A DNA stretch of 26,709 nucleotides from a candidate division WOR-3 bacterium (GCA_039803205.1 JBDRYB010000026.1:1-26709), one strand, 5' to 3'. Shown: positions 127 through 26,485, counted from the stretch's first letter. The notes: generated by a model from the sequence alone, not told the origin. Made by a program: numbers and translations.

Positions 127-276
127 AATTTTTCTCCTTTCCCGGCCCTTCCTTCTTGGGGCCGGGATTATATTTTCATCCCTCAGGGCCTCCCTGGGCC
201 ACTACGGCCCCAAGGGTTTGAGAGCTTTGCCTTGCAGGATAAGGGTTTCAGAGGGGAGGGAAGTGTGAGATCTCAG
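1..276 (-). mobile_element. End of an IS4-like insertion sequence, running off the left edge
   Basis: Near-identical to 15542-15809; similarity stops exactly at ...GAGATCTCAG (276). The end reads CTGAGATCTCACAC on the minus strand, a CTGA-starting terminus as in IS4-family elements. Confidence 0.75.
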
Positions 277-1345: not shown

Positions 1346-2254
1346 ATGAAGCTGGCCACGGTTTCCTTGACATCCTGCACGGGTTGCCACGTGGCAATGC
1401 TCCATTTGGGCCAGGATTTCGCGAACATCCTGAAGGGATCAGATGTTGTCTATTCCAGCGTGCTGGCTGACTTTAAAAAAATCCCCAAGTGTGATGTGGC
1501 ACTCCTGGAGGGAGCGGTCCGGAACGAGAAGGATGTCTCCTTGCTCAAAGAGGTTCGCGAGAACTCAAAGATCCTCGTGACAATAGGAACATGTTCCTCA
1601 TACGGTGGGGTCGCTGGACTTGGTAATACTGCTCCAGCTAGTGAACTCTACGAGACTGCTTACAAAGACCAGGCCAAACGTTACCCAGCGCTTCTTCCTA
1701 GGCTTTTGCCAGTTGACTCCTTTGTTGAGGTGGACTACTATGTTACTGGCTGTCCACCCCCACCGAAGGTTCTCAGTGGGTTCTTCAACGATCTCCTCTC
1801 AGGCAAGAAACCCAAGGTCAACGATCTTCCCGTGTGCGCTGACTGTAAGAGAAGGGTGAAAGGTAGCTTTGCCAGAAACATGAGGCATCTTCATCAGGCA
1901 CAGCCTGAGGATGGGGTATGCCTTCTTCAGCAAGGCTATATTTGTCTAGGTTCGGTCACGAGGGCTGGTTGTGAGGCACTATGTCCCACCGCAGGACATC
2001 CCTGCAATGGGTGCCGAGGCCCAACCCACAAGATCCTTCTCAATCCCTCCCACGGTATATACATAGACATTGTTAGACGCAGAAGTCATTATCTCGGAAT
2101 AACCGAGGAACAGTCCAGACAGGAGATAGACGAGTTTACGGACAGGAGTCTCTACTGGTTTACCCTCGCCTCTCCGTTCCTCCGAAGGAGAAACATGGAG
2201 AGAGTGTCATCACTTATACACAGGGTCAACGTGGATAAAGAAGGAAGCGAATGA
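1346..2254 (+). CDS. [NiFe]-hydrogenase small subunit, group 3 (MvhG-like)
   Basis: SCTGCH, EGAVRN, GTCSSYGG, GCPP, VCADC and CLLQQGYICLGSVTRAGCEALCPTAGHPCNGCRGP Fe-S motifs; no Tat signal. Confidence 0.9.
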   Translation: MKLATVSLTSCTGCHVAMLHLGQDFANILKGSDVVYSSVLADFKKIPKCDVALLEGAVRNEKDVSLLKEVRENSKILVTIGTCSSYGGVAGLGNTAPASELYETAYKDQAKRYPALLPRLLPVDSFVEVDYYVTGCPPPPKVLSGFFNDLLSGKKPKVNDLPVCADCKRRVKGSFARNMRHLHQAQPEDGVCLLQQGYICLGSVTRAGCEALCPTAGHPCNGCRGPTHKILLNPSHGIYIDIVRRRSHYLGITEEQSRQEIDEFTDRSLYWFTLASPFLRRRNMERVSSLIHRVNVDKEGSE

Positions 2255-3666
2255 TGCCAGATGAGATAGTCATATCACCCGTTACGAGGATAGAGGGCCA
2301 CGCGGAGATAACCGTTGAGCTGGGCGATGATGGCAGGGCAAAGGGGGCTAGGTTCCATGTTCACAACTTCAGGGGATTCGAGAGGTTCCTTGAAGGGATG
2401 CCGGCTGACGACCTTCCCCAACTTACCTGCAGGATATGTGGGATATGTTATTCCGCCCACGGCCTAGCGTCTGTGAAGGCCATTGAATCAGCCTGGGGTA
2501 TCAAACCATCCCCAGAAGCCAGAAAGGTCAGGGAGCTGATATTCTTCGGTCAATACATAGAATCCCACGCGCTCTCCCTGGCAGTTCTCAGCCTCCCGGA
2601 TTTCATTTACCCGGGCCAGGGGCCTGAGAAACGAAACATAGTTAATCTACTGAAGACCCATGAAGATGTAGCGAAGAAACTCATTGATCTCAGGCAATCC
2701 GGCTCAATGATCACCAGGGTGGTTGGGGGGCGCCCAGTTCATCCTGTCAACTTCGTTCCCGGTGGAGTTGTTCGCGTGCCCACCCCTGAGGAAAGGAAGG
2801 AGCTCCTTAAGGGTCTTGAGGGTAAGGATGCTGTGTTGGTTGGCTTGTGGAACATCCTCAAGGAGGTTCTGCTCAAGAATCCGGAGTTTATGAGTCTCGG
2901 CGCAACCGAGACCCACTATCTTGCCATGAATGACGAGGGCAAAATTGCTTTTTACGATGGTCATCTGAGCATTATGACCCCTGATGGCAAGATAAAAGAA
3001 ACTTTCCCACCCGAGGATTACTTCAAGCATGTAGCCGAGGAGGAGCACGCCTTTAGTTACATGAAGTTCCCTGTTCTGGTAACTGGGGAGAAGTTCAGAG
3101 TTGGACCCCTTGCCAGGGTGAATATCGCAAAACTCTGCGGAACGCCAAAGGCTGATGAGATACTATCGGAGGCCAGAGAGATCGTTGGTTTTCCAACCAA
3201 CACCACCATGGCCTATCATGTAGCAAGGCTCATAGAAACGGTGTATTCCTGGGAAAAAGCGGTTGAGCTCCTGAACGACGATGATGTTTCCTCACCAAAG
3301 GCCCTCTTCGCAGGGATTCCTGCCAAAGCCGGAAGGGGCATCGGTATAGTTGAGGCCCCCAGAGGTGTTTTGGTTCACCAGTACGAGTTCGGTGACACGG
3401 GAAGACTTATCAAGGCCAACTTCGTGGTTGCCACCCAGCACAACAACCACGCTATAAACGATGGCCTTTCTGCAACAGCGCGAGAACTCATCACATCTCC
3501 AAAAGTTCCGGAGGAGATCCTGAACAGGCTTGAGATGATAGCCAGGGCATACGACCCGTGTCTCGCTTGTGCCACTCACGCTATTGGCGTGCGTCCGTTT
3601 ACAATAGAGCTCGTTGGCCCTGATGGCAAAACTATAAGGAGGTGGGAAAGAAATGGCCGGGTTTAA
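2251..3666 (+). CDS. [NiFe]-hydrogenase large subunit, group 3 (MvhA/HoxH-like)
   Basis: TRIEGH, RGFERF, RICGIC (L1), EAPRG, RAYDPCLACATH (L2) followed by a C-terminal extension; ATGA overlap with the small subunit gene. Confidence 0.93.
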   Translation: MMPDEIVISPVTRIEGHAEITVELGDDGRAKGARFHVHNFRGFERFLEGMPADDLPQLTCRICGICYSAHGLASVKAIESAWGIKPSPEARKVRELIFFGQYIESHALSLAVLSLPDFIYPGQGPEKRNIVNLLKTHEDVAKKLIDLRQSGSMITRVVGGRPVHPVNFVPGGVVRVPTPEERKELLKGLEGKDAVLVGLWNILKEVLLKNPEFMSLGATETHYLAMNDEGKIAFYDGHLSIMTPDGKIKETFPPEDYFKHVAEEEHAFSYMKFPVLVTGEKFRVGPLARVNIAKLCGTPKADEILSEAREIVGFPTNTTMAYHVARLIETVYSWEKAVELLNDDDVSSPKALFAGIPAKAGRGIGIVEAPRGVLVHQYEFGDTGRLIKANFVVATQHNNHAINDGLSATARELITSPKVPEEILNRLEMIARAYDPCLACATHAIGVRPFTIELVGPDGKTIRRWERNGRV

Positions 3667-3934
3667 AATAACCAGAGACAAGGACAGGTGTGTCATATGC
3701 GGGGAATGCATCCGAGTTTGTCCGCAGTCCGGGGGGGACAAACAGTTCCCGGTAATAAAGGAGCATCCCACCAAAGAGGAACCACCTGAGGTTGTGAACC
3801 CGGACAACTGCATCCAGTGTCTGAGGTGTCTGGATACATGCAGAGCCTCAGCAATAAGCTTTGAGGGTTATCGCGAAGTCAAACAGGTTCTGCTTGATCC
3901 ATACATGGTCAGGGAGGCTGATAAGATCGTTTAG
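3653..3934 (+). CDS. 2x[4Fe-4S] dicluster ferredoxin
   Basis: CVICGECIRVCP and CIQCLRCLDTC motifs; overlaps the end of the large subunit gene. Confidence 0.9.
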   Translation: MAGFKITRDKDRCVICGECIRVCPQSGGDKQFPVIKEHPTKEEPPEVVNPDNCIQCLRCLDTCRASAISFEGYREVKQVLLDPYMVREADKIV

Positions 3935-4513: not shown

Positions 4514-5926
4514 TTATATAACCAACAGGTCCATGAACTCGTGGAAGGGCATCTCATCAAGCGCCCTGGGGTCCTTAAAGAGCGCTATCATCTCTTCAAC
4601 CCGATGGTGCGGGAAGCGGCTATCCATGTTTGAGCGGAACTTCTCGTAAAGGAGGGGAGTTGCTTCGTGCCTCCTGCGTTTGTGGCCTATGGGATACTCA
4701 ACCTCTAGCTTACCGGTGCTTGTCCCGTCCTTGAACCTTACTTCAACCGCATTTGCTATTGAGCGCTTATTAGGATCAAGGTAATCCGCTGAGTATCTCG
4801 GATCCTCAACCACCTTCATCTTGCTTCTGAGCCGATCTATTCTGGGGTCCGAAGCGACCCGGTCAGAATAGGAATCAGCAGTTACCTCACCGTATATGAG
4901 GCCTATTGCCACCATGTATTGGATGCAGTGATCCCGGTCAGCTGGGTTGTGAAGAGGGCCTTCTTTGTCTATTATCCTTTTCGCGGATTCCTGGGTTGTT
5001 ATGATGATCTCCTCTATCTCATCAAGTCTGTCTCTTACGCTAGGATGAAGTCTCAGGGCCGCCTCAAGCGCTGTCTGCCCGTGGAACTCAGCCGGAAAAG
5101 AGACCTTGAAAAGCACATTCTCCATTACATAGCTTCCCAAGGGCCGAGCGAGGACTATCTCCTTGCCATGGAACCACACGTCCTGAAACCCCCAGCCAGG
5201 AGCGGAAAGGGCCTTTGGATAACCCATCTCCCCTGCCATAGCCCAATATGCCAGCTGGACCCCGCGGCTCGTCGCATCCCCAGCGGCCCATGACTTGCGG
5301 GAACCTGTTTGTGGTGCGTGCCTGTAAGCCCTAAGGGTTGCCTCAAGGAATGCATTTGACACAGCGCTTATTACCTGTTCCCTCGTGCACCCGAGCATGG
5401 CCGCACTGACCGCGGCCGAAGCCACCTTCACGAAAAGGACATGGTCAATCCCCACCCTGTTCAGGCTATTCTCCAGGGCGAGCACCCCTTGTATCTCGTG
5501 CGCCTTTATTGCCCAAGTGAGAACATCCCTGACCCTGGCTGGCTCCCGGCCTCTTGAAACCGCCTTTTGGCTCAGGTGATCCCCCAAAGCGAGTATTGCG
5601 CCGAGGTTATCGGATGGGTGGCCCCACTCAGCTGCCAGCCATGTGTCGTTGTAATCAAGCCAGCGTATAGCTGTCCCGATGCAGAAAGCGGCCCTCACCG
5701 GATCCAGGATGAACTGGGTTCCAGGGACCCTTGAACCCAAAGGAACCACTGTCCCGTGGAGAATAGGCCCCATGAGCTTCGCGCAAGCGGGATAAGAGAG
5801 AGCGAGAACCCCGCAACCGATCGAGTCCATGAGACAGAGCCGTGCTGTATCGTATGCCTCCTTGCTGGTTATCTCAGCCCCCAAAACATAGTCCGCTATG
5901 TCCGAAAGAACCCTGTCCGGCTCCAT
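4514..5926 (-). CDS. prpD: 2-methylcitrate dehydratase (MmgE/PrpD family)
   Basis: [61 protein letters not shown]. Confidence 0.95.
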
Positions 5927-5928
5927 GG

Positions 5929-7050
5929 CTATCGCTCGCCTATGGGGATAAACTTTAGGTTTTCCGGTCCGATGTATTCTGCTCTGGGCCTTATTATCCT
6001 GTTGTTTGCCCTCTGCTCAAATATGTGCGCCGACCATCCGGATGTCCTCGCCATGACGAATATGGGCGTATACATGGGAACGGGGATCCCACACATATAG
6101 TAGAGAACCCCGCCGAAGAAGTCCACATTGGGGAAAAGCCTTTTCTCTCGCCACATGACCTCCTCAACCCTCTCGGCCTTGTTGTAGAGGCTCATATCCC
6201 CGGCCCTCTCCGAGAGTCTCTTTGCCCATGATTTCGCTATTGGATGCCGGGGATCAGAGACCTTATATACCCTGTGGCCAAAGCCCATTATCTTCTCTTT
6301 TCTTGCGAGCATATCCAGGATCTGCCTCTCAGCATCGTCAGGGTCCTTGAACTTTTGAAGCATGTATACCGCGGCCTCGTTCGCGCCGCCGTGCAATGGG
6401 CCCCGAAGGGCACCTATGCCACCAGTGATGGCTGAGTAGAAATCCGAGAGGGTTGATGCGATCACCCGACAGGAGAATGTTGAGGCATTGAACTCGTGTT
6501 CAGCGTAGAGTATGAGAGTAACATCAAGGGCCTTCTCAGTGAGCGGATCCGGTTTCTCCCCTTTCAGTAGCCTCAGGAAATGCCCCGCGATACCCCTTTC
6601 GTCAGTCTCGGTTTCTATTCGCTTGCCTGAGTTGGCGAAGTGATACCAGTAAAGGAGCATTGACGGGAAAGAGGCGAGCAATCTGTTGGCTATGGAACGC
6701 TGATCCCTACCGGGCCCCTCTGGTTCCATCGTGCCCAGAGCAGAACACCCTGTCCTCAGGACATCCATGGGGTGGGCATCCCGTGGTATCTGCTCCAGAA
6801 CGGTCTTAAGGCCCTGAGGCAGGCCTCGCATCTTTCTAAGGGTAGCTTCATACTCCTCAAGCTCGGATATGTTCGGCAGCTTCCCGTAAAGGAGGAGGTA
6901 AGCCACCTCCTCAAAGCGAGCGTTCTCAGCCAGGTCCTCAACAGAGTATCCCCTGTAATGAAGGCCTTTACCCTCCTTGTCAACCGTCGCGATGGCCGTG
7001 TCACCGGCTATGACCCCTTCAAGTCCAGTTGGCTTCTTCAAAGCTTCCAT
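5929..7050 (-). CDS. prpC: 2-methylcitrate synthase
   Basis: [35 protein letters not shown] citrate-synthase motifs; located between prpB and prpD. Confidence 0.93.
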
Positions 7051-7116
7051 GGTATATAACCTCCGGTTCAGCAGTTATTATATAACGGCAAGGAACCCTC
7101 GCGCCACAATTGGCTT

Positions 7117-7992
7117 CTATCCCCTGCGAAGCAGTTCGTCCATCCTCCGTTCGTATTCGTGATACCCTATCACCTCGTATAGCTCATCCCTCGTCTGCAT
7201 GAGACCAAGGACACCCTTCTGGGTTCCGTCCTTGAGTATGGCTTCATAGACCCTTTGAGCCGCCTTCGCCATGGCCCTGAACGCTGATAGGGGATAAAGG
7301 GCTATGCTAACCCCGGCCTCGCCGAGCTCCTGAGCGGTGAAAAGAGGGGTCCTTCCGAACTCGGTTATGTTGGCCAGGATGGGAACCTCCACGGCCTCAG
7401 CTATCTTCCTGTAGTGATCCAACTCTGCAAGCGCCTCAGGGAATATCATATCAGCTCCCGCATCCCTGTAAGCAACTGCCCTTTCTATGACGCCTTCCAA
7501 GCCCTCTTTCGCAAAAGCATCGGTTCTTGCCATTATCACGAAATCAGGGTCTTGCCTCGCATCAACAGCGGCCTTTATTCGGTCCACCATCTCCTCTCTG
7601 GAGACTATCTCCTTGCCAGGCCTGTGGCCGCACCTTTTAGCGGAGACTTGATCCTCTATGTGAACGCCTGCCGCTCCTGCTTTTTCCATCTCTTTGATGG
7701 TTCTGGCTATCCCAAGAGCGTTCCCCCATCCGGTGTCCACATCAACCAAAAGAGGAAGCGAGCAGGCCGATGTTATTCTTCGGACATCCTCAAGCACATC
7801 CGATAGGTTCGTCATCCCGAGGTCAGGAAGCCCATACGAAGCTGTTGCGACTCCGGAGCCTGATAGGTAAATTGCCTTGAACCCGATCCTTTCAGCGAGT
7901 ATGGCCGCGTAGGCATTTATTGCGCCGGGGAGCTTGAGAGGCCTTTCGGACAGAAGAGCGGCTCTAAATAGTTTTCCAGGGCTTTCTCTCAT
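7117..7992 (-). CDS. prpB: Methylisocitrate lyase
   Basis: [46 protein letters not shown]. Confidence 0.96.
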
Positions 7993-9011: not shown

Positions 9012-9617
9012 TCATTTTTCTTCTTTTTGCCTGAAGACTATCCTAGCCTTCACATCCACATCGTTCTCGGCCTTGAACATGGCAAACTCAGGTGGTTCCA
9101 TGCCGTAGTCGGTCAGGAGGATCTTAAAGGAGGCAGTTCCCTTCAAGGCTGATGAGCCTATCTCAACCTGTGCGGGGATGCCGATCTCCTTCGTGACCCC
9201 GTGCAGGGTGAAGCTCCCTATTAAATGCGCGCTCACGGTTTTGCCAATGGCTTCATCCTTTGATGTGATCTTGTCCAGCTCGTCGCTGTGAAGCCCCGTT
9301 ATCTCAAAGCTTATCATTGGATATTTGTCAACCTCAAGGAGCTTGTATGTGTTGTTGTCGCGCATGGAGTTGCCGCTTGTCATGCTTTTTGCCTTCACCT
9401 CTATCTTGCCCTGAATGTTCCTGGTCTCTGGGTCCACCTTGAGCCAGCCCCAAAACTCTCTAACATTGCCCTCCATATCGTGAGTAGTGGCGTGCGCGGT
9501 ATATTTTATGTAGCTTCCGTCGCGATCTATCTCGTAATAGTAAGTCTCAGCGGACACCGGAAGTGCAAAAACGCTAGTAATAGAAATGGAGGCTAAGAGT
9601 TGCTTCGTTATCCTCAT
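9012..9617 (-). CDS. YceI-family periplasmic lipid/polyisoprenoid-binding protein
   Basis: Signal peptide; SGNSMRD, LEVDKYPMISF, GSFTLHGVTKEI, DYGMEPP. Confidence 0.9.
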   Translation of the reverse strand: MRITKQLLASISITSVFALPVSAETYYYEIDRDGSYIKYTAHATTHDMEGNVREFWGWLKVDPETRNIQGKIEVKAKSMTSGNSMRDNNTYKLLEVDKYPMISFEITGLHSDELDKITSKDEAIGKTVSAHLIGSFTLHGVTKEIGIPAQVEIGSSALKGTASFKILLTDYGMEPPEFAMFKAENDVDVKARIVFRQKEEK

Positions 9618-10578
9618 AGCTTTTACCTCCTTTGTGTTTTACAAGGCCATAGGCCCCGTATATCTCTGTGAAAGGCATGGGGATAAACCTCACACCTACC
9701 CTCTGCCTTTCCCCTATTTCGGTTATGTTCGTTCCCCTTAGGTATTCCTGGGTCAGATCATAAGCGAAGAAGGGATAGAACCCTCTTCTCGGTTTCCAAT
9801 AGAGAAAAGCTGTTAGGTCCAGAGTATATGTTGAGTCATACGGAGAGTTGACGAGAACAGCATCAGCCCAGGGATAAAAGTTGAAACCGGAAAACCCCAA
9901 ACTCAGACCATAGTAGTTTCTGTCCATCTTTTTGTAGAAGGAGCCGCCGAACATTAAGTGTCTCAAGAAGACTATGGCCCTCGCGGAGACAGTTCTGAAG
10001 GTATCTGAATCAAAGATGGCCCCCGGCGCGCCGTTTTGGTGAGCAAACGAGATGGTGAGCCATTCAGAATTATAGCCTATCTCGAGGCCCGCGTCCGATG
10101 ACCTCGGACCCACCGGGCCCGCGCGGGAGGCATAGGACTGGTGATCATCTGTCCGCAGGCCAAATGGAGGTTTGAAGAAGCCAGCCTTTATGTATGAGCC
10201 AGACAGTAGGAGATTCCAAATGTATCCTGCGACCTCAGCGCCTCCCCATATGCCTTTATCAACATATACATATACCCTTTCGTTTAGGGCATCCCCTATG
10301 TATATGTCTCCCTGCATCAGAGAGTAAGAGGAAAGTCTATCCGAGTTCCTAGCGTAAAACAGGCGCATGTCTCCGCCATAGGTTATGGTTTCCTCTTCAT
10401 TCAGATAAGGAGGAACATAATCCTGGCGGGGAGCAAAAGGTATCTTTCTGACGCCTATGCCAAAGCCGGGCCCTGCGCGTAGGCCGCCGCCAACCGGATC
10501 AAGATGACAGACTCCGCAGGAGACTCCTCCCTCAAGTCCCAGCTCCGGAGTCGCTATAAGAAAGGCTAAAACCAACAT
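9574..10578 (-). CDS. Putative outer-membrane beta-barrel with N-terminal monoheme CxxCH (Cyc2-like cytochrome-porin architecture)
   Basis: CGVCH followed by LDPVGGGLR near the N-terminus; porin-like IKAGFFKPPFGLR and DAGLEIGY strands; C-terminal LSLHFYY. Confidence 0.7.
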   Translation of the reverse strand: MLVLAFLIATPELGLEGGVSCGVCHLDPVGGGLRAGPGFGIGVRKIPFAPRQDYVPPYLNEEETITYGGDMRLFYARNSDRLSSYSLMQGDIYIGDALNERVYVYVDKGIWGGAEVAGYIWNLLLSGSYIKAGFFKPPFGLRTDDHQSYASRAGPVGPRSSDAGLEIGYNSEWLTISFAHQNGAPGAIFDSDTFRTVSARAIVFLRHLMFGGSFYKKMDRNYYGLSLGFSGFNFYPWADAVLVNSPYDSTYTLDLTAFLYWKPRRGFYPFFAYDLTQEYLRGTNITEIGERQRVGVRFIPMPFTEIYGAYGLVKHKGGKSYEDNEATLSLHFYY

Positions 10579-10590
10579 CTTTTCTTCTCC

Positions 10591-11016
10591 TTATGGGTAA
10601 TATATGAAATTCCCTTGGGTGTGGCAGACCGCGCACGCGGGGTTGGTCGGCTGAGTCGCCATCCAGATCGTGTCCTGGCTCCGGGTTAGGCCTATCCTGT
10701 ATGGCGATGGAACCGGATCCGCTGTCCAAAAATTACCGTTGTAATCAGTAATTAATGTCTGCCTCAGAGCCCCTGCATTGTCATAAACGAGAACCTGGAC
10801 GCTCTCGGCCGGAGCTGAGCCTCCAGCGTCAGTGAACACGGTTCCACCCATGGCCCAGACATATTCCCCTGCTTCGCCTCCGGGTGTGTGGCAAGTCAGG
10901 CAATTCGCTCCTTGATTGTGGCCTGGTCCATAGCCTTCCTCAACGGGCCCGCCTCCGACACAATTCCCACTCAGAATGAAAGCAAGAATAAGCAATGCAC
11001 TTTGCGGTTTCATCAT
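10591..11016 (-). CDS. Exported diheme c-type cytochrome (possible lipoprotein) with a central beta-sandwich segment
   Basis: CLTCH and CAVCH; start moved to 11016 because ATGA overlaps the upstream stop and a hydrophobic leader MMKPQSALLILAFILSGNC follows. Confidence 0.8.
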   Translation of the reverse strand: MMKPQSALLILAFILSGNCVGGGPVEEGYGPGHNQGANCLTCHTPGGEAGEYVWAMGGTVFTDAGGSAPAESVQVLVYDNAGALRQTLITDYNGNFWTADPVPSPYRIGLTRSQDTIWMATQPTNPACAVCHTQGNFIYYP

Positions 11017-12065
11017 CGGTGAACCAACGGAGCGTTTTGCGCGGCCCAGCCCTTCGTCTCTGTGTCGTGGCAGCCAGCGTACAGGCATGTGTATTCCAGA
11101 GTCAGATACGGATTGGCAAAGGAACCAGTAGAATCAAACTGCTGCGCCAGCGAGTCCGGGTTTATGGAGAATAAATGAGACCTTACATCCCCCTCATACT
11201 GGCCTGAGGAGACCGCGGACTTAACCGCGTAGGGCATGTGGCAATCCAGGCAGCTTAGATTCTCCATGCCAGGGATTACAACCTCCTTGTCCCAATGGCA
11301 GGCCTTACAGTCGTTCTTTATTGCCAGATCAGGATTATAGTGCGCGCTCTGGTGTGGATCGTGGCAATCCGTGCAGTCAAAGAAAGCGTGTTTTGAAGCC
11401 AAGAGCTCATTATACTGCTGGTGATGCTGGATGAAACCGCCTTTTGCCGGAATGGTGTAAGGGTTACCCCTTACATGACACTCACCGCACAGCTCCTTTG
11501 ACCTGTCTATAACCATTGCCACATTCTCTGGGTCGGCCGCATGCTCGGAGCCAGGGCCGTGGCAAACCTCGCACTGAATACCCGGGAAGGCCCATGTGCC
11601 TTTTATGCCCGGAAGATTATCCTGATGCCCAGTGGGGGAGTAACCAGTGGTGTGGCATGCTCCACAATCATATGGCACCACCTTATCTGCCTCGTAATCA
11701 ACCCACTGACCCGTCTCAAAGTTATACTGGTTCTGACCTCCCTGGGTTATGATGTATCCGTCCAGGCCTATGAACCTGGCCTTCCAGGCATAACCACCTA
11801 TCACATAGGAAACATCGTTGTAAGTGAAGTGAGGCGGATTTGGCGGCAATTCTGTATAGGGATAGTCGGGTATCTGACCATTGACGACCTTCGTAAGCTT
11901 ATACGGATGGCCTGTTGTTCTGAAGGATGTGTAGATGCCCTCGTGACAGGTAGCACAAGCCTCGGAGCCTATGTACTCGGCCTTCTCGGATGCAGGAATT
12001 CTCCCACCCGTGCATCCAGCCACGGCGAAGCAGATAAACAGCTGGGTTTTTAAATAAGTCTTCAT
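11013..12065 (-). CDS. Multiheme c-type cytochrome lipoprotein (7 CxxCH + 1 CX4CH)
   Basis: CATCH, CGACH, CEVCH, CGECH, CTDCH, CKACH, CLDCH, CLYAGCH; lipobox VAGC; RBS AGGAGG. Confidence 0.9.
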   Translation of the reverse strand: MKTYLKTQLFICFAVAGCTGGRIPASEKAEYIGSEACATCHEGIYTSFRTTGHPYKLTKVVNGQIPDYPYTELPPNPPHFTYNDVSYVIGGYAWKARFIGLDGYIITQGGQNQYNFETGQWVDYEADKVVPYDCGACHTTGYSPTGHQDNLPGIKGTWAFPGIQCEVCHGPGSEHAADPENVAMVIDRSKELCGECHVRGNPYTIPAKGGFIQHHQQYNELLASKHAFFDCTDCHDPHQSAHYNPDLAIKNDCKACHWDKEVVIPGMENLSCLDCHMPYAVKSAVSSGQYEGDVRSHLFSINPDSLAQQFDSTGSFANPYLTLEYTCLYAGCHDTETKGWAAQNAPLVHR

Positions 12066-12069
12066 GATG

Positions 12070-12816
12070 TTACCTCCTTATAGCCTTAAATACAAGGTTA
12101 TTTCCGACGCACACCGTGTATGTGCCGGGGTTCTCCTCGCTCAGATCAACCAGGGCCTCGGTTTCATCCGGAGGGAGGGTTAGGACAGAGACCAGCCTGC
12201 CAGATATGTCCAAAACACGAGCAGTCCGGTACCTATGGGTCGGATTTAACCTCAAAAGGAAAACACCGGGTCGTCCGGTCGGGAAGAGTCCTTCCTCAAA
12301 GCCAATTTCGTCCTCATCCACGGCAACATTCTCGGTGGCTATCAGGAAGGTATCCAGGTTGGGCCCATCCGCGAGGCCCCAGTGAAACGCCAGGTAAAGC
12401 CTTACCTCGCCCGTGCCTGGGGGTGGTGCTGTCCAGTAGAAGGTGCCATAGGTCTGATCGTTAGCCGAAAACCGTACGCCGTTGGTTTCCACAGCCACAT
12501 TATAGGTTTGTGTGTTGGTACCTGCAGTTATCACGCCCGCGTTATTGGACCCAGTTCCTATCCGGCAAGAGCCATTGAAGTTCTTGATAGGGTTGGTGCT
12601 CGTTATGGTTATCTCATACTGCTGATTCGGAGTATAGACTGAGGGAAAACCGGTTATGGTGACCACATCAGTGCCGGACCCATGACACGAAGAAGCACAG
12701 AAACCAAGTGAACCTGGTGCACCTGAGTAGCCCTTATAGCCAGCATGGGCCTCCAACACTGCTGGCAGTCCTGCCAGCATGACGACAGAGATCATGGATA
12801 GAGAAGCTATGCGCAT
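12070..12816 (-). CDS. Secreted Reeler-like (choice-of-anchor V-like) protein with CX3CH motif and T9SS-like C-terminal domain
   Basis: Signal peptide; SGAPG...CASSCH; YTPNQQYEITI and FYWTAPPPGTGEVRLY (Reeler-like); LDISGRLV...PGTYTV tail. Confidence 0.75.
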   Translation of the reverse strand: MRIASLSMISVVMLAGLPAVLEAHAGYKGYSGAPGSLGFCASSCHGSGTDVVTITGFPSVYTPNQQYEITITSTNPIKNFNGSCRIGTGSNNAGVITAGTNTQTYNVAVETNGVRFSANDQTYGTFYWTAPPPGTGEVRLYLAFHWGLADGPNLDTFLIATENVAVDEDEIGFEEGLFPTGRPGVFLLRLNPTHRYRTARVLDISGRLVSVLTLPPDETEALVDLSEENPGTYTVCVGNNLVFKAIRR

Positions 12817-12886: not shown

Positions 12887-13099
12887 CCTCTACCAACCCT
12901 CACCTGCCCCACTTTCAACTCCTTCTAAGTCCTTGGCCGGCAAAGACTTAGACCGAAGTGCCGATGGCCCAAGAACTTAGATGAGCTAAAATGCGGAATT
13001 CTCCGATTTTATCGGGAAGGTCTGGATTGATGGTTTTTGGTTCCAGAGGCCAAAAGTGGTGGTTTCCGGCCCAGCTATGGCCAAAACAGGGGGAAAGGA

Positions 13100-13473: not shown

Positions 13474-15189
13474 GTGTTTATGCTGGTCTTGCTTATAGCT
13501 TTCAATGTTATACCCCTGGAGAAAACGATGGGGTATTACAGGCCTCTCCCGCCAGCGGATTATACTCTGCCAGAGACCATGAGGACCATGCCTAAGGAAC
13601 GCATCGTAAAGGAGGGATTGCCTTTGGAAATGGATGTGGTCCCCGGCAGGACTAGTGGCGCTTGGCGGGCTATTGAAGATTCAAGAGAAGAGGATGTTCA
13701 GCCTCAGGACATCGGAATAAACCTCCAGGGTATAACCTTCACCTATTATATCCCGCCGGATGTTCAGATAGCCGTTGGCACGAACCATGTGATAGAGATG
13801 GTCAATTCTCATCTGGCCATATACCGCAAATCAGACGGCGCACAGGTCTATTTCAACAACTACTACAACTTCACGGGCATCCCGGATAACGGAACCAACA
13901 TGCTTTATGACCCACGCATAGCCTACGACATCCAGGCCAACCGCTGGATCATAACCCTGGACCACACTGATTGGAACCGTCAGATAACCGAGGTGGTGCT
14001 CATGGTCTCGGTGGACTCCAATCCCTTCAATGGGTTTTACCTCTACAGGATAAACGCCGCTCTTCCCAATGGCACATGGGCAGACTATCCTATGCTTGGT
14101 TTCAACACCTGGGGAATCTTTATCACGACCAATCAGTTCACATGGGGCGGAGCATATTCTACCTCTCTGCTCTTCATCCTGGACAAGGCCTCAGCTTATT
14201 CGGGTGGGCCATTAACCGGTTCATACACAAATGCCGCCCAACCCGCTTGGCGTGTAGCCATGAGCTTGGATGTTTGCAACACAGCTTTTTTGGTGAAGAG
14301 CTTAACTGGCTCGGGCAATGTGATCCGCGCGTGGAAGATAACGGGGTCTGCCAGCGCCCCTGTTTTCTCTCCCCAGTATAATGTCGCGGTTGCGTTATAT
14401 TCCGCTCCTCCCTCGGCCCGTCAACCTGGCCCTAACGACAACATAGACGCAGGAGACGCGAGGCTCCAGGATGTCACTTTCAAGGGGGGCAGCATCTTTG
14501 CTACGCTTGGGGAGACTCGCAACTGGGGTTCTGGAAACTCTTGTGCCATACGCTACATAAGGATAGACACCACGACCATGACTGCCGCACAGGACCTCAC
14601 TTATGGCTCTGATGCGGTAGATTACTATTACGGCAGGGTTTCACCGGAAAATGCCTGTGAGAGTATGGTCTTTACCAGGAGCTCCAACACTGAGTTCGCC
14701 TCGGTTTATGTTACCACAAAGGCCCTGGGCGCACCCTCATTTCCACCGTCAACACTCATAAAAGCAGGGGAGGCCAGCTATTACCTTCCAGAACCACCGC
14801 CCTCTGCCAGGAACCGCTGGGGCGATTATTCCGGTGTTTATATGGATCCTACAGGAACCTGCGTGTGGGCCGCGGGGGAATACGCTATGACACCGTCGGG
14901 TATTGACCGATGGGGAACCTGGATCGTGCGCTTCTCATGTAACCCACTTTACGAAGGTGTTGAAGAGAAAAGCGCTTCTTCTTCCCTCCTATACTCCGGC
15001 GGCTGGCTCTACTACAGCCTTCCAGACGAGGGCATGGATGTCAGGGTCTACGATGTCCTTGGCAGGATGGTTTGGGAAAGGAGACTTTCTGGAGCCGGGA
15101 GGGTTTGGCTTGATATAGGGTCTGGAGTCTATTTTGTCAGGGCCGGTAGCCAATCTTGCAAGTTGGTCCACCTAACAGAGAAACCATAG
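13474..15189 (+). CDS. Secreted protein of unknown function with T9SS-like C-terminal domain
   Basis: RBS GGGAGG; hydrophobic N-terminus; PPDVQIAVGTNH, DPRIAYD, WADYP, RWGDYS motifs; VYDVLGRMV...GVYFV tail. Confidence 0.8.
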   Translation: MFMLVLLIAFNVIPLEKTMGYYRPLPPADYTLPETMRTMPKERIVKEGLPLEMDVVPGRTSGAWRAIEDSREEDVQPQDIGINLQGITFTYYIPPDVQIAVGTNHVIEMVNSHLAIYRKSDGAQVYFNNYYNFTGIPDNGTNMLYDPRIAYDIQANRWIITLDHTDWNRQITEVVLMVSVDSNPFNGFYLYRINAALPNGTWADYPMLGFNTWGIFITTNQFTWGGAYSTSLLFILDKASAYSGGPLTGSYTNAAQPAWRVAMSLDVCNTAFLVKSLTGSGNVIRAWKITGSASAPVFSPQYNVAVALYSAPPSARQPGPNDNIDAGDARLQDVTFKGGSIFATLGETRNWGSGNSCAIRYIRIDTTTMTAAQDLTYGSDAVDYYYGRVSPENACESMVFTRSSNTEFASVYVTTKALGAPSFPPSTLIKAGEASYYLPEPPPSARNRWGDYSGVYMDPTGTCVWAAGEYAMTPSGIDRWGTWIVRFSCNPLYEGVEEKSASSSLLYSGGWLYYSLPDEGMDVRVYDVLGRMVWERRLSGAGRVWLDIGSGVYFVRAGSQSCKLVHLTEKP

Positions 15190-15190
15190 C

Positions 15191-15809
15191 TTGAGATCCC
15201 GCATACTCTCACCCCCCAGAAACAGGTTCTGATGCAGGATAGCTCGTAAGTTCTTGGGGCACAAGAGCTTAGCGTATCCTCCTCGCAATCGTCCAAGACA
15301 CAGGAGTGCCTTGGTGAAGACGCTATACCTCCTCTCGTAGCTCGTGAGGCTGGGTATGAAGGTGGAGACAAAGGGTTCTATGGCCATACCAACGAGAATG
15401 AGGAAAGCGCAAGCAAGGAATATGGCCTTTATCATTCCTCTGAGCACATCCTTGTTCCTGGCCTTGAGATGCTCAAGTCCCTCGTATGTCCTTGAGGAAG
15501 CCCCTTTTGACCTCGGATTTTGCCTCCCACCATGCGAGGCTTGAGCGGGAATACTCAATTGCCTAGATGTGCACCTTGTCCAGGATGAGACCCTCTTTGG
15601 CCCCCATGGACTTGAGCCAGAGTTTCAGCTTGCTTGATACTTGTGGAGAAAGGAACATAATTTTTTCTCCTTTCCCGGCCCTTCCTTCTTGGGGCCGGGA
15701 TTATATTTTCATCCCTCAGGGCCTCCCTGGGCCACTACGGCCCCAAGGGTTTGAGAGCTTTGCCTTGCAGGATAAGGGTTTCAGAGGGGAGGAAAGTGTG
15801 AGATCTCAG
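15191..15809 (-). mobile_element. Internally deleted non-autonomous IS4-like element (~620 bp)
   Basis: Imperfect terminal IRs TTGAGATCCCGCA / CTGAGATCTCACA. Carries a transposase start (ATG 15658, early stop) and a transposase-like C-terminus (GLEHLKARNKDVLRGMIKAIFLAC...RRYSVF). 15542-15809 is repeated at 1-276. Confidence 0.75.
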
Positions 15810-15898
15810 CTATACGGGGCGTTGAAAGAAGATCTTGGAATAGTTTATAATTATCGGAGCGCGGTTATAAGCTACAAAAACCAAAAGGAGCGTGTTTT

Positions 15899-17518
15899 AT
15901 GCCAAAAGCAACGACTTTGGTGGCCTCAGTCCTGGCTGTGAGTCTCTCGTGGGCTGGTTCCGCGGCTCAGCACCTCTCCAAGATGGACGAGGCCACCAGA
16001 GAAAACGCACTGATAGACCTGGAGTGGGCAGGAGCCCACACCAACGAGATGGCCAACGCTGAGTATCTCTGGAACACTGGAAGATACTCAGAGGCCATAT
16101 CCGCCATAGAAGCACTGGAAGCCGAGCTCGGAGACATGTGTCTCGGAATATCCTGGCGCAAGCCCATAGAGACCGAGAGCCCAAAATGGGGAACGGATGT
16201 TCGTGTGACCCAGTCAAGCTACGACATAAGTGACATCGAGCTTGTCAAGGCCCAAGGCAACAACAACCTATTCGTTTTAGCCATGGGGACCAGTGGCGCT
16301 GATACCTGCTGGACCCTCAATATCTCAACAAACGGAGGAAGCTCTTGGTCAGAAACATACAGATGGAACCTCGCGAATGGCTATGTATTAAAGGATGTTG
16401 ATGCGGCCGAATATCCAGGCTACATATATGTCGCGTATGCCAGCTCTTATAATGACTCAGTTTGGGTGAGGAGGTTCAACGAGACCAACGGGAGCTTTGA
16501 CAACGGGTTCGATTACAAACTCGTGATTGGCACTAACGCGGATATAAGGGAACTAAATCTTGAGCCTAATAGAATGAATTGGGATCAGCTATACTGCGCG
16601 GTCATTAACGCGAGCGGAAGCCTCCTCTATACCTACTCGACTGACGGCGGCTCTACATGGAATTCTGTTTCTACAGGCGTATCAGATGCAAGTGGGGGGC
16701 TTGATATGGACTACGGCTTTATGAGCGGCTCTCAGCACTTCTTCTGGCTCAGTTACATAAATAACGCTGGCGAGCTTTGTGCCAAGGGCCGTGCCCCCGG
16801 TATTTGGGAGGATCACTACAACATCACGGAGGACGCTCACTGGTATACCAGGATAGCCCACCACGGCGATACGATATTGATTCTCTATTCAGACGGAAGT
16901 ACAGGTGATCTTGAATACCAAGTGACCTATGACGACGGGAATAACTGGAATGGAGGGATCCTATACGATTCCACAGATGCTGGAGCGTTTGACATAACCG
17001 GCCGGGGAGGCCAGGGCTGGCAGGCCGCGTTCTGCGATTACTATGCATCTGGCCCTGAGACCATGAAATATAGGCACAGTACCTATCAGTATCCGCACAG
17101 CTGGGACAATGTCCAGAGCTTTGGGGATCACGATGCTTTCTTCAATTACCACAGCTCCATTGACTACCTCGGTGCCTCGGGCGCCTACGGTGTTGCCTAC
17201 ATAGACGATAACTTTGATGTCTGGTTTGACAGGTTGGATTGGGGCGATGTTGCTGAGTCCGCTCCAAAGCCCCTACCCATGGAATTCAAGGCCCTACCAG
17301 GCCCTGGAAAGACAACCCTCTCATTTGTCCTGTCTCAGGAAGGCTTTGCTAGTCTGAGGATATACGATGTCCGCGGCGCTCTGGTCAGAGACCTCTCCGG
17401 CAACTACAAGGAAGGCATGAACAGGGTTGAGTTCGTTCCCGATGGTTCCGGAACCTTCTTCGCTATACTGGTCGCTGGAGGCCGACAGGCAAGGACCAAG
17501 TTCGTGACAGTGAAGTAG
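15899..17518 (+). CDS. Secreted BNR/Asp-box (beta-propeller-like) protein with T9SS-like C-terminal domain, copy 1
   Basis: Signal peptide; STNGGSSWS, STDGGSTWN, TYDDGNNWN Asp-boxes; IYDVRGALVR tail; RBS AAGGAG. Confidence 0.85.
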   Translation: MPKATTLVASVLAVSLSWAGSAAQHLSKMDEATRENALIDLEWAGAHTNEMANAEYLWNTGRYSEAISAIEALEAELGDMCLGISWRKPIETESPKWGTDVRVTQSSYDISDIELVKAQGNNNLFVLAMGTSGADTCWTLNISTNGGSSWSETYRWNLANGYVLKDVDAAEYPGYIYVAYASSYNDSVWVRRFNETNGSFDNGFDYKLVIGTNADIRELNLEPNRMNWDQLYCAVINASGSLLYTYSTDGGSTWNSVSTGVSDASGGLDMDYGFMSGSQHFFWLSYINNAGELCAKGRAPGIWEDHYNITEDAHWYTRIAHHGDTILILYSDGSTGDLEYQVTYDDGNNWNGGILYDSTDAGAFDITGRGGQGWQAAFCDYYASGPETMKYRHSTYQYPHSWDNVQSFGDHDAFFNYHSSIDYLGASGAYGVAYIDDNFDVWFDRLDWGDVAESAPKPLPMEFKALPGPGKTTLSFVLSQEGFASLRIYDVRGALVRDLSGNYKEGMNRVEFVPDGSGTFFAILVAGGRQARTKFVTVK

Positions 17519-17542
17519 GGCTTGTCTTCGCTGAAAAAACAG

Positions 17543-17566
17543 GCCCCGGCTCGTGCCGGGGCTTTT
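17543..17566 (+). terminator. Intrinsic terminator
   Basis: GCCCCGGC-TCGT-GCCGGGGC-TTTT after stop 17518. Confidence 0.85.
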
Positions 17567-17668
17567 AATTTACGAAGAGATCGCGGGGCGTGAGAAAAGA
17601 TCTTGGAATAGTTTATAATTATCGGAGCGCGGTTATAAGCTACAAAAACCAAAAAAGGAGCGTGTTTT

Positions 17669-19291
17669 ATGCCAAAAGCAACGACTTTGGTGGTCTCAGT
17701 CCTGGCCGTGAGTCTCTCGTGGGCTGGTTCCGCGGCTCAGCACCTTTCCAAGATGGACGAGGCCACCAGAGAAAACGCACTGATAGGCCTGGAGTGGGCA
17801 GGAGCCCACACCAACGAGATGACCAACGCTGAGTATCTCTGGAACACTGGAAGATACTCAGAGGCCATATCCGCCATAGAAGCACTGGAAGCCGAGCTCG
17901 GAGACATGTGTCTCGGAATATCCTGGCGCAAGCCCATAGAGACCGAGAGCCCAAAATGGGGAACGGATGTTCGGGTGACCCAGTCAAGCTACGACATAAG
18001 TGACATTGAGCTTGTCAAGGCCCAAGGCAACAACAACCTCTTTGTTGTAGCGATGGGTTCATACGGTGCTGATACCTGCTGGACCCTCAATATCTCAACA
18101 AACGGAGGAAGCTCTTGGTCAGAAACATACAGATGGAACCTCGCGAATGGCTATGAATTGTATGATGTTGATGCGGCTGAATACCCTGGTTATATATATG
18201 TCGTTTACGCCAGCTCCTACAACGATTCGGTATGGACGAGGAGGTTCAGCGAGACCAACGGGAGCCATGATGACGCTTTCGGTTTTAAGCTTGTAATCGG
18301 CTCAAACTCGGAGATGTGGGAGTGCAATCTTGAGCCCAATAGATACAGTTGGGATGAGCTCTACTGCGGGGTAATCAACTCTAGCCGGGCCCTTTTATAC
18401 ACTGTGTCTTTTGATGGTGGATCAAGCTGGACACCAATCTCCACAGGTGTCACGGATGCTTATGTTGGTCTTGATATGGATTACGGGTTTATGGCCGGGG
18501 CTCAGCATTATCTTTGGCTAAGTTATCTAAACGCCACTCCCAGTCTCTGCGCTAAAGCTCGTATTGGCGGTTCCTGGGAAGATCACCCCAATCTCGCACC
18601 TTCTGCCTGGGGGTATACCCGCATAGCCCAACACGGGGATACGGTATTGATTCTCTACGCGGATACCGGAAACCTCACTGATCTCAAATACAGGGTGACC
18701 TACAACGACGGAGGAGCCTGGACTTGGGGAACTGTATACGATTCTACGGATGCTGGCGCGTTTGACATAACCGGCCGGGGAGGCCAGGGCTGGCAGGCCG
18801 CGTTCTGCGATTACTATGCATCTGGCCCTGAGACCATGAAATATAGGCGAAGGACCTATCAATTCCCGCCGGATTGGGAGGCTGTCCAGAGCTTTGGGAA
18901 TCACGATGCTTTCTTCAATTACCACAGCTCCATTGACTACCTCGGTGCCTCGGGCGCCTACGGTGTTGCCTACATAGACGATAACTTTGATGTGTGGTTT
19001 GACAGGTTGGATTGGGGCGATGTTGCTGAGTCCGCTCCAAAGCCCCTACCCATGGAATTCAAGGCCCTACCAGGCCCTGGAAAGACAACCCTCTCATTTG
19101 TCCTGCCTCAGGAAGGCTTTGCTAGCCTGAGGATATACGATGTCCGCGGCGCTCTGGTCAGAGACCTCTCCGGCAACTACAAGGAAGGCATGAACAGGGT
19201 TGAGTTCGTTCCCGATGGTTCCGGAACCTTCTTCGCTATACTGGTCGCTGGAGGCCAACAGGCAAGGACCAAGTTCGTGACAGTGAAGTAG
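17669..19291 (+). CDS. Secreted BNR/Asp-box protein with T9SS-like C-terminal domain, copy 2
   Basis: Paralog of 15899-17518 with near-identical ends and a diverged middle. Confidence 0.85.
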   Translation: MPKATTLVVSVLAVSLSWAGSAAQHLSKMDEATRENALIGLEWAGAHTNEMTNAEYLWNTGRYSEAISAIEALEAELGDMCLGISWRKPIETESPKWGTDVRVTQSSYDISDIELVKAQGNNNLFVVAMGSYGADTCWTLNISTNGGSSWSETYRWNLANGYELYDVDAAEYPGYIYVVYASSYNDSVWTRRFSETNGSHDDAFGFKLVIGSNSEMWECNLEPNRYSWDELYCGVINSSRALLYTVSFDGGSSWTPISTGVTDAYVGLDMDYGFMAGAQHYLWLSYLNATPSLCAKARIGGSWEDHPNLAPSAWGYTRIAQHGDTVLILYADTGNLTDLKYRVTYNDGGAWTWGTVYDSTDAGAFDITGRGGQGWQAAFCDYYASGPETMKYRRRTYQFPPDWEAVQSFGNHDAFFNYHSSIDYLGASGAYGVAYIDDNFDVWFDRLDWGDVAESAPKPLPMEFKALPGPGKTTLSFVLPQEGFASLRIYDVRGALVRDLSGNYKEGMNRVEFVPDGSGTFFAILVAGGQQARTKFVTVK

Positions 19292-22325: not shown

Positions 22326-22352
22326 GATTCTAACCTCTTTCTTTACATCCAT

Positions 22353-22382
22353 ATTATATTCCAATCCTGTCCAGGGTTGCAA
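22353..22382 (-). promoter_or_regulatory. Sigma70-like promoter for the PorV-TonB gene
   Basis: Minus strand TTGCAA-N18-TATAAT. Confidence 0.55.
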
Positions 22383-22495
22383 CTCTTTGACTCCAAGGGA
22401 GAGGGTTTTGTTCCAAGAGTATTGGCATCTAAAGGCGATCCCTGCCCTCTGCTTCCCAGCCACAGGGGCAATCAAAGTCTCGCCATTTATTTCCT

Positions 22496-24433: not shown

Positions 24434-24460
24434 GTTTCACCTCCTTGCAAGCAAAACAGC

Positions 24461-24507
24461 GGGCCGGGCCCCTTTGGGTCTTGATTCAGGGAGCCCGGCC
24501 CCTTTTT
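24461..24507. terminator. GC-rich intergenic hairpin (terminator or RNA-processing element)
   Basis: GGGCCGGGC...GCCCGGCCC stem; homologous to 25946-25992. Confidence 0.55.
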
Positions 24508-24515
24508 CATTTCAC

Positions 24516-25925: not shown

Positions 25926-25945
25926 GGTTTACCTCCTGAAGAAAG

Positions 25946-25992
25946 ACAAGGGGGCCGGCCCTTTGAGCGAAAACGGAACCGGCCCCTTTTGT
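25946..25992. terminator. GC-rich intergenic hairpin
   Basis: ACAAGGGGGCCGG...CCGGCCCCTTTTGT stem. Confidence 0.55.
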
Positions 25993-25999
25993 TCATGCT

Positions 26000-26485
26000 T
26001 TACCTTACCACGACCTTCTCGGTCAAGGCCTTTGTCCGGGTTTCTATTTTCAAGAAGCAGGTTCCGGAGGAGAAGGAATTAACCGGAATGGCGAGATCAT
26101 AGTAGCCAGCTTCCTTTTTCTCAGAGAACACCGTTTGAACTGTTCGGCCAGAGACATCATAAACCTTCAGGGAGACGAGGCCTTCGTCTTCAAGGGGGAT
26201 GCCGTATTTGATTTTGAGATCCTCCTTCACAGGATTGCTTGAGGCCAGGCTCATAATGATGTAGCTCGGGTTCCATGTTGGCAGTTGGGGATGGCCTGGG
26301 ATGGAGATATGACCCATTTTATCCAGTTTTGGGGCTATGACATCTTATCCGTACTGGTTTCCGAACGAGAAGTCAGAGGTCTTTAGGCTGAGGTTCACGA
26401 TGAGGGTGTCCTGGGCCATGAGCTCAGGAGCCAGGAGTCCGAAGGCCACGCATGTGGCCCATACCAACCATCTTCTCTCTCTCAT
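26000..26485 (-). pseudogene. Collapsed T9SS-cargo pseudogene: signal peptide, C25 (gingipain) propeptide-like fragment and C-terminal domain, with an in-frame TAA
   Basis: RBS AGGAGG and ATG 26485 are in frame with stop 26000: MRERRWLVWATCVAFGLLAPELMAQDTLIV...NQYG*DVIAP...PGHPQLP, then directly the CTD. TAA at 26345-26347. Confidence 0.65.

Follow-up and report, generated by a model that had tools for sequence, protein, structure and literature searches.

The heme operon of the window

Five genes on the minus strand of a 26,709-nucleotide stretch of DNA (GCA_039803205.1 JBDRYB010000026.1:1-26709), here called the window, form a heme operon in a candidate division WOR-3 bacterium of the class Hydrothermia. 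The window is one contig (C26) of a 2.3-Mb assembly that is 95.9% complete, and hot-spring metagenomes (four runs from a single study) contain 81-100% of it; two of these runs may be its source, and none of the listed runs is an RNA run. A sequence-only reading had proposed a conduit for extracellular electron transfer (EET) at this place, encoded by five coupled genes, and all five open reading frames (ORFs) were found. In order of transcription they are:

12816-12070, minus strand: choice-of-anchor V (Reeler-fold) heme protein, 248 aa, CX3CH at residues 40-45
12065-11013, minus strand: octaheme c-type cytochrome, 350 aa, seven CxxCH and one CX4CH
11016-10591, minus strand: diheme c-type likely lipoprotein, 141 aa, two CxxCH
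10578-9574, minus strand: monoheme cytochrome-porin, 334 aa, one CxxCH
9617-9012, minus strand: exported YceI-family protein (lipid/isoprenoid-binding), 201 aa, PF04264 at 81.6 bits (cut-off 23.7)

Along the operon the genes are joined by a 4-nt gap, a 4-nt overlap, a 12-nt gap and a 44-nt overlap, and an AGGAG-type site precedes four of the five starts. The diheme gene is taken to start at 11016, and not at 11088 as in the ORF list, because of the ATGA overlap and its four homologues. The complete five-gene order is kept at 68-90% identity, with different flanking genes, in the related loci L001 and L002, which carry identical proteins and are counted as one case, and four of the five genes recur in L004. 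The operon is therefore not a chance grouping. The YceI gene starts inside the 3' end of the porin gene with an AGGAGG of its own, as it does in L001, L004 and L005. The octaheme gene is optional, since L003, L004, L006 and L007 lack it between the flanking genes, the diheme gene there standing directly after the gene for the Reeler-fold heme protein (hereafter Reeler-heme gene). The window locus, with heme-type motifs in four of its proteins, is the most complete form of the porin module seen in this analysis.

A predicted monoheme porin built like Cyc2

The product of 9574-10578 had been taken for a CxxCH-bearing beta-barrel, and structure prediction bears this out. The AlphaFold model, computed with 126 sequences, has a predicted local distance difference test (pLDDT) of 92.7 and consists of a short helical N-terminal part with the CxxCH, followed by 16 long strands. 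Foldseek returned general porins for this model, and an exhaustive structure search ranked OprP first (Z 24.4, root-mean-square deviation [rmsd] 2.6, 275 residues) and MtrB only 44th (Z 11.5, rmsd 9.5). The protein is thus a predicted 16-strand OprP-like porin. A hydrophobic leader of nine residues, read by eye, precedes the CxxCH at C21-H25.

The family comprises 1403 representatives (50% identity level) at E<=0.001, and no Pfam or NCBIfam model matches it. The N-terminal CxxCH is present in 143 of 151 unselected relatives, and at least five of the remaining eight are N-terminal fragments. Residues C21, C24 and H25 are invariant in all 126 aligned full-length members, which were picked for having the motif; H146, H331 and M88, candidate ligands of the porin heme to judge from the alignment, are kept in 118-119 of them, and the porin also keeps an acidic residue adjoining H146.

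The published layout of Cyc2 consists of a signal peptide, one CxxCH and a 16-stranded OprO/OprP-like barrel (PMC8406198). The same source defines an upstream motif, AxPxFAR[Q/K][T/Y], excludes sequences without it from the Cyc2 tree, and sets a floor of 365 aa. The upstream motif, sought as PxFAR[QK][TY], occurs in 0 of the 143 CxxCH-bearing porin relatives, and so does the Cyc2 PxL four residues past the heme motif. Upstream of their CxxCH these relatives have P at -10 in 132 cases, F at -8 in 76 and A at -7 in 92, and the window porin retains only the P at -10; downstream, 108 of the 143 share a P-x-G-x-G-x-R, and a P-x-GGG-x-R segment takes the place of the Cyc2 PxL. At 334 aa the window porin is also shorter than the 365-aa floor of FeGenie, although many relatives are longer. 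In its layout the porin thus resembles Cyc2, but with both motifs missing and only 334 aa it falls outside the published definition. The Cyc2 examples compared were those of Acidithiobacillus ferrooxidans, Mariprofundus (Cyc2PV-1) and Leptospirillum (Cyt572). Cyc2 homologues reported in Ignavibacteriaceae and Bacteroidetes genomes (PMC6344600) may include members of the window porin family.

The resemblance raises the question of whether the operon encodes a true Cyc2-type Fe(II) oxidase, with electrons moving inward from dissolved Fe(II). The architecture is the same, NrfAH is a possible electron sink, and cupredoxin and small-cytochrome neighbors at some loci recall cyc2-cyc1-rus (PMC10654088). 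We give this a very slim chance, as the Cyc2 motifs are missing in 143/143 relatives, a terminal oxidase was not found in three genomes of the genus, and about 240 cargo proteins of the type IX secretion system (T9SS) fit a polymer-degrading heterotroph.

Distribution of the porin and its neighbors

Of the genomes searched, 51 of 121 in the Zixibacteria phylum and 42 of 251 in the Bacteroidota phylum have members of the porin family, and 9 of 272 WOR-3 genomes have a porin bearing the N-terminal heme plug. Porin-profile matches in 132 of the 272 WOR-3 genomes are mostly ordinary plug-less porins and were not counted as members; L008 and L013, which have only the N-terminal motif in common, were dropped.

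Neighborhoods were sampled at the best 30 loci of each of the Zixibacteria and Bacteroidota phyla and at 10 WOR-3 loci, with 19 plug-less WOR-3 porins as a control. A same-strand gene for a small CX2-4CH protein lies within 1 kb of the porin in 26/30, 23/30 and 6/10 loci, respectively (55/70 in total), compared with 0/19 for such a gene within 1 kb in the control; because related genomes are not independent, the neighborhood counts are descriptions and not significance tests. Wider neighborhoods contain a small cytochrome in 18/20, 17/20 and 5/9 loci of the three phyla. A YceI gene is found no more than 3 kb from the porin in 10/20 Zixibacteria-phylum, 2/20 Bacteroidota-phylum and 2/9 WOR-3 loci and in 4/5 close metagenome loci, as called by a model built from the same loci, of whose 12 calls in the Zixibacteria and Bacteroidota sets Pfam confirmed 11. 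The corresponding counts for a Reeler-heme gene are 0/20, 0/20, 2/9 and 4/5. The fixed core is likely the porin and a small cytochrome, with the remaining parts exchangeable. The expected co-occurrence of these genes elsewhere therefore held for L001/L002, for L004 and for porin-cytochrome pairs across three phyla; the idea of the five-gene unit as a conserved machine was not supported, given the loci without the octaheme gene and the Reeler-heme gene and YceI in 0/40 and 12/40 other-phylum loci.

Other redox neighbors identified by Pfam are PSCyt1 cytochromes, Rieske proteins (L226, L227), P460 (L228) and cupredoxins (L168, L169), and in L083 ResB and CcsA genes precede a plug-less porin member and a monoheme lipoprotein. 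Three unrelated T9SS-tailed proteins of redox type occur beside the porin: the Reeler-heme protein (window, L001-L004, L081, L082), a cupredoxin (L168) and a Temptin_C-CxxCH protein (L222, L223). The last, at L222:4291-4959 and L223:6232-6900, is encoded directly before the porin; its CxxCH lies in the Temptin_C-like domain, and the motif region resembles the porin plug. In the genome G077 (L040:4247-6210) YceI is intact, but decay or sequence errors have left the porin gene and a diheme-like gene fragmented.

The octaheme cytochrome and its surface relatives

The second gene had been read as a lipoprotein with seven or eight hemes, and closer inspection settles the number at eight. Among the 120 homologues listed, of 1277, all eight motifs are conserved without exception, C327, C332 and H333 included, and seven further His residues are conserved in 115-120. 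There is no CxxCK catalytic heme, all eight motifs ending in His. From its sequence the protein is likely a lipoprotein attached via Cys18. Profile searches matched 6I5B (E 3.5e-24), 6QVM (E 1.4e-18) and MccA (E 4e-11), with residues 26-203 aligning with 6I5B at E 3e-17. The first two structures are OcwA and OmhA, two cytochromes that iron reducers display at the cell surface (PMC9250108), and OmhA has been located on cell surfaces and magnetite (PMC7829351). The octaheme protein is thus no known soluble catalytic enzyme, its best solved relatives being surface cytochromes. A further homologue, with 51% identity, is a PGF-CTERM-anchored cytochrome of Geoglobus acetivorans, an organism that reduces Fe(III).

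In WOR-3 the octaheme cytochrome was found in 3 of 272 genomes: that of the window, G024 and G029. In the latter two the gene sits in a cluster with genes for a Rieske protein, a cytochrome b, cytochromes with 6 to 18 motifs and a family-less protein of 393 aa; by its gene content this cluster is a candidate for a full-size conduit. The clusters (L116:278-10488 in G029, L117:5176-12218 in G024) encode proteins with 9, 18, 7, 6, 8 and 11 CxxCH.

Could the octaheme protein instead be a catalytic reductase of the periplasm or surface, acting on N or S oxyanions or NO, that entered the operon recently and is fed by other genes? Members of its clade, which holds OcwA, OmhA, MccA and c554, contain penta-coordinate hemes and reduce nitrite or NO in vitro (PMC9250108), and the H214/H215 pair of the octaheme protein is conserved in 117 and 115 of the 120 listed homologues. 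However, the correspondence of this pair to the distal His pair of OcwA comes from one weak segment, which a profile search placed elsewhere, the operon works without the octaheme gene in close relatives, and CxxCK is missing. We see a slim chance for a catalytic role, and prefer to regard the octaheme protein as an optional part of an electron-transfer chain.

The Reeler-fold heme protein and its possible export

The product of the first gene scores 46.9 bits on NF041895 (cut-off 42), and its model has a Reeler fold, the top six Foldseek matches being F-spondin Reeler domains (E 1e-7 to 4e-6); the heme segment of the model has a pLDDT below 50. Residues C40, C44 and H45 are invariant in all 23 WOR-3 homologues. 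Because all keep the site, most of them as plain CxxCH, the CX3CH is a variant of one conserved site. No His or Met outside the motif is conserved among the 23, so the sixth heme ligand may be the mature N-terminus, which serves this purpose in cytochrome f, or the site may be open. By its sequence features the protein is likely a surface-secreted monoheme protein with a signal peptide and its motif near the predicted mature N-terminus.

The sorting tail noticed in the sequence-only reading is the weaker part of this picture. On curated sorting-domain models it scores 17.6 bits against a cut-off of 23 and 17.5 bits against 27. On a tail model built from the genome it scores 19.7 bits, rank 241 of 2044 tails, and only two further tails lie between 10 and 19.7 bits, which places it above a background gap. 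The tails of the homologues range from 5 to 37 bits on this model, 3/23 match TIGR04183 at E<=0.01, and a beta-sandwich is predicted for the tail of the window protein. The Reeler fold and heme motif of the earlier claim stand, with a weak tail that is under the curated cut-offs. The genome encodes T9SS machinery (SprA, PorV and five C25 peptidases), and about 240 of its 2044 proteins have a T9SS-type tail, six others in the window (13474-19291, 23147-26317). Moreover, all 23 homologues match NF041895 and 19 match NF041894, the MYXO-CTERM model of the MXAN_6652 family; together with the T9SS parts of the host, these anchored relatives point to the cell surface. No function or paper was found for choice-of-anchor V proteins in the literature searched, which covered neither subscription papers nor supplements. 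Many T9SS-tailed proteins of the genome have, like the porin, very short hydrophobic leaders without a charged N-region.

The closest homologues of CX3CH type (L081, L082) adjoin plug-bearing porins that form a separate, well-supported branch of the porin tree (48 rows, midpoint root for drawing only), so that the Reeler-heme gene keeps beside porins on two separate branches. At 25 other WOR-3 Reeler-domain loci a small cytochrome is encoded beside the gene in 11, nine of which also have a DUF5777 barrel. In the WOR-3 family f32 (L095-L112) there is a parallel module of one or two monoheme lipoproteins, a choice-of-anchor V protein and a DUF5777 barrel; no paper on DUF5777 was found in the same literature. 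The choice-of-anchor V assignment of L159/L160 came from the T9SS tail and was lost with a Reeler-only model.

A heme-carrying surface protein might also belong to assimilatory metal handling, that is, to reduction of chelated Fe(III) or Cu(II) at the surface, or to heme binding, for uptake. Eukaryotic ferric-chelate reductases contain Reeler domains, the lack of a conserved His or Met outside the motif would allow an open heme site, and the porin retains H146, H331 and the acidic residue beside H146. Nevertheless, uptake genes such as Feo or a TonB-dependent receptor were not recognized among the scanned neighbors or in the window, and an upstream alignment of three loci, read by eye, gave no clear shared palindrome. 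We consider this explanation quite unlikely.

The probable diheme lipoprotein and YceI

The third gene, described earlier as coding for a diheme exported protein, can be refined to a likely lipoprotein, since C19 is invariant in 5/5 sequences. The protein has a small Ig-like middle domain, and its conserved H33 and M119 are candidate distal ligands, as judged from the alignment. Look-alike diheme clusters (unnamed) occur in Myxococcota and Bacteroidota, and the protein is related to a one-heme lipoprotein encoded beside the porin in L038 (hhalign 93.6%).

The fifth gene is indeed a YceI gene, its PF04264 match lying above the cut-off; its solved relatives are 3HPE (E 3e-6) and 7BWL (E 0.007). 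Solved YceI proteins mostly hold an isoprenoid or ubiquinone-8, and the YceI protein BcnA with the cytochrome b561 LcoA limits membrane lipid peroxidation (PMC9113575). This lipid and quinone literature is the basis both of a quinone shuttle in an electron chain and of another explanation, envelope redox upkeep, by which YceI would deliver quinol to the outer membrane, where lipid radicals or oxidants would be quenched. The porin and cytochromes would then re-reduce YceI or surface proteins, replacing the cytochrome b561 that is the partner of YceI in Proteobacteria. Apart from the BcnA-LcoA precedent and the bound isoprenoids, a low-capacity, single-copy, one-heme core that is common in lineages not known for mineral respiration (the 51/121 and 42/251 genomes above) would suit such a role. 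Yet YceI lies near the porin far less often (10/20, 2/20, 2/9) than a small cytochrome does (18/20, 17/20, 5/9), and the octaheme and the tailed surface redox proteins would be superfluous. Upkeep is unlikely in our judgment, though it ranks first among the alternatives.

Cytochrome c maturation and redox metabolism of the host

CcmF, CcmC, CcsA, ResB and CcmE were not found in the assembly. The two same-genus genomes each have one CcmF (PF01578 match; L032:2093-3949 and L033:66-1991) and no CcmE or CcmB over the cut-off. The gene after that for CcmF is conserved in the genus and codes for a small exported protein predicted to be beta-rich. In metagenome run X1 a 14.6-kb contig covers the same-genus ccmF at about 82% identity and has a depth of 42, compared with 30-34 for contigs on three control genes, and in runs X2-X4 the depth of the ccmF contig relative to the control mean is 0.88, 0.95 and 1.37. 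The control contigs are from the window organism, as 30/30 listed differences match the assembly letters. The absence is therefore judged to be an assembly gap: the neighbor gene of ccmF is also missing, the smallest contig of the assembly is 5,074 bp, and the ccmF contig tracks the organism. From this co-variation across four runs of one study, in which no contig joins it to the assembly, we infer that ccmF is present in the organism but unbinned. Thus the assembly does lack ccmF, ccmC and ccsA, but the stronger statement that the genome lacks cytochrome c maturation does not follow. It is possible that the genus has a reduced maturation system, or that search misses explain the absences.

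The assembly contains an intact NrfAH and a NapC/NirT-type gene, and menaquinone synthesis is represented by an MqnP-like prenyltransferase and an orthologue of a menaquinone-synthesis gene. Heme-copper and bd oxidases were not found in the three genus genomes by a genome search with false negatives. Because this search missed the window's own choice-of-anchor V gene, what it failed to find (oxidases, ccmE, ccmB) counts for less than an absence from tblastn or hidden Markov model scans of the genome. The sole WOR-3 isolate respires oxygen and elemental sulfur and lacks psr and dsr (PMC12285271).

A proposed modular outer-membrane electron conduit

We propose that the operon encodes a modular outer-membrane electron conduit, based on the predicted Cyc2-like monoheme porin, that carries electrons from the periplasm to the outside, and give this about an even chance of being right. 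Electrons from menaquinol would pass to NapC/NirT-type or NrfH tetraheme proteins, or would be carried on a quinone by YceI, then to the diheme lipoprotein at the periplasmic face, through the porin heme across the outer membrane, and to the T9SS-exported Reeler-heme protein, which would meet the acceptor at the surface. The acceptor may be Fe(III), sulfur or polysulfide, a humic quinone or another cell acting as partner. In some strains the octaheme lipoprotein would join this chain as an optional extension or buffer. Outward flow is favored over Fe(II) oxidation because no oxygen reductase was found in the host; that electrons leave for one of these acceptors is, to us, a roughly balanced call.

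Several observations weigh against this proposal, beside the interdependence of the neighborhood counts. Conduit activity and localization are predictions from sequence and modeled structure, and a quinol oxidase of the inner membrane is not encoded in the operon. The full set of five genes is rare: the porin, octaheme and Reeler proteins were not found in either same-genus genome by the genome search described above. Only 2 of 20 Bacteroidota-phylum porins have YceI nearby, none of the 40 wider loci of other phyla has a Reeler-heme gene near the porin, and only 3 of these 40 have a T9SS-tailed redox neighbor (Pfam scan of 51 chosen proteins). Among the roughly 241 tails of the genome that of the Reeler protein scores lowest, and 14 of the 25 other WOR-3 Reeler-domain loci have neither barrel nor cytochrome beside the gene. 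Moreover, ccmF is not in the assembly, and ccmC, ccmE and ccmB were not found in the three genus genomes (ccmE and ccmB by the weaker search). Finally, the cultured WOR-3 strain failed to reduce ferric citrate or ferrihydrite (PMC12285271).

A bolder version of the conduit, which we hold to be rather unlikely as a whole, is an EET chain of the Fibrobacteres-Chlorobi-Bacteroidetes (FCB) group composed of a quinone-ferrying lipocalin, a one-heme porin and an exchangeable T9SS-delivered terminal (the Reeler-heme protein in the window, a cupredoxin or a Temptin-like heme protein at other loci), possibly with a cytochrome f-like N-terminal ligand. If true, this chain would give the T9SS a respiratory role. 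The more general proposal would have a practical consequence. Surveys of iron and extracellular redox metabolism depend on models of Cyc2, Mtr and the porin-cytochrome complex (Pcc), and a common envelope redox route may go uncounted because the porin fails the Cyc2 motif filter yet is widespread (51/121 and 42/251 genomes). The lack of a detected oxygen reductase and the link to T9SS cargo suggest outward flow and a role for an uncharacterized secreted domain. All parts of the module are small, expressible and assayable, and no paper on a porin-cytochrome-YceI module was found in the literature searched.

Flanking elements and other genes

No sigma-70 promoter or terminator signal above chance was found, and an Rfam scan of the window gave zero matches. 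A dispersed element precedes the operon:

12899-12980: 82-bp dispersed element lying 83 bp upstream of the operon start, 15 genome copies

Of these copies, eight are found 60-83 bp ahead of a gene start, all in a single orientation, and a copy is also present upstream of ccmF in L033. The element may be either the end of an insertion sequence or a promoter element in shared use. Another element, 93 bp long, is identical at window positions 153-245 and 15686-15778 and has 13 genome copies, mostly 70-170 bp before a gene. Outside the operon the window encodes subunits of a NiFe hydrogenase of Vhu/Mvh type with a ferredoxin, and a cluster of methylcitrate-cycle type (PrpD, citrate synthase, PEP mutase/ICL family) at 1346-3934 and 4514-7992, and a PorV/PorQ-family barrel fused to a TonB C-terminal domain at 20958-22475. 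Elsewhere in the genome are a UshA-like tetraheme lipoprotein (C24:22333-23430) and a three-motif protein of no family (C10:651-1784).

Comparison with known systems

Distinctive of the locus are the T9SS-tailed Reeler-heme protein, the optional OcwA-related octaheme protein and a host without a detected oxidase. With MtrCAB and the Pcc systems it shares a porin, a periplasm-side cytochrome and an outer-surface cytochrome within one operon. There, however, a large heme-free barrel sheaths a multiheme (decaheme) cytochrome, whereas the window barrel is small, with 16 strands and its own heme plug, and its surface partner would leave via the T9SS. On the MtrA/DmsE and MtrC/OmcA models the octaheme protein stays below the cut-offs, with 28.8 versus 192.2 bits on TIGR03508 (DmsE/MtrA) and 13.6 versus 209.3 on TIGR03507. 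PCC3 and PCC4 (PMC5566968) differ from the window module in their large multiheme proteins and in having a partner in the inner membrane.

The OcwA of Thermincola potens and the OmhA of Carboxydothermus ferrireducens share with the octaheme protein a homologous c554-like N-terminal four-heme module (hemes 1-4). They have 9 and 11 hemes in 526 and 681 aa, compared with 8 hemes in 350 aa, and the significant match to OcwA is confined to the N-terminal module. Unlike them, the octaheme protein is probably lipid-anchored, belongs to a diderm cell and has a porin gene nearby. BcnA-LcoA is similar in that a YceI protein is encoded alongside a heme protein; in the window the partners are outer-membrane and c-type, and the cytochrome b561 family was not among the 24 window proteins scanned. 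The choice-of-anchor V and MXAN_6652 families have the same domain as the first-gene protein, which differs by its CX3CH and its porin neighbor.

The closest likeness in design is to Cyc2, which has in common with the window porin a signal peptide, a single N-terminal CxxCH and a (predicted) 16-strand OprO/OprP-like barrel, and around the porin family also small-cytochrome and sometimes cupredoxin neighbors. Cyc2 potentials themselves differ widely, from -130 to +208 mV (PMC8406198, PMC13692758). The published motifs and length filter set Cyc2 apart from the porin family, whose partners are instead YceI, lipoprotein cytochromes and T9SS-tailed proteins, in a host without a detected terminal oxidase.

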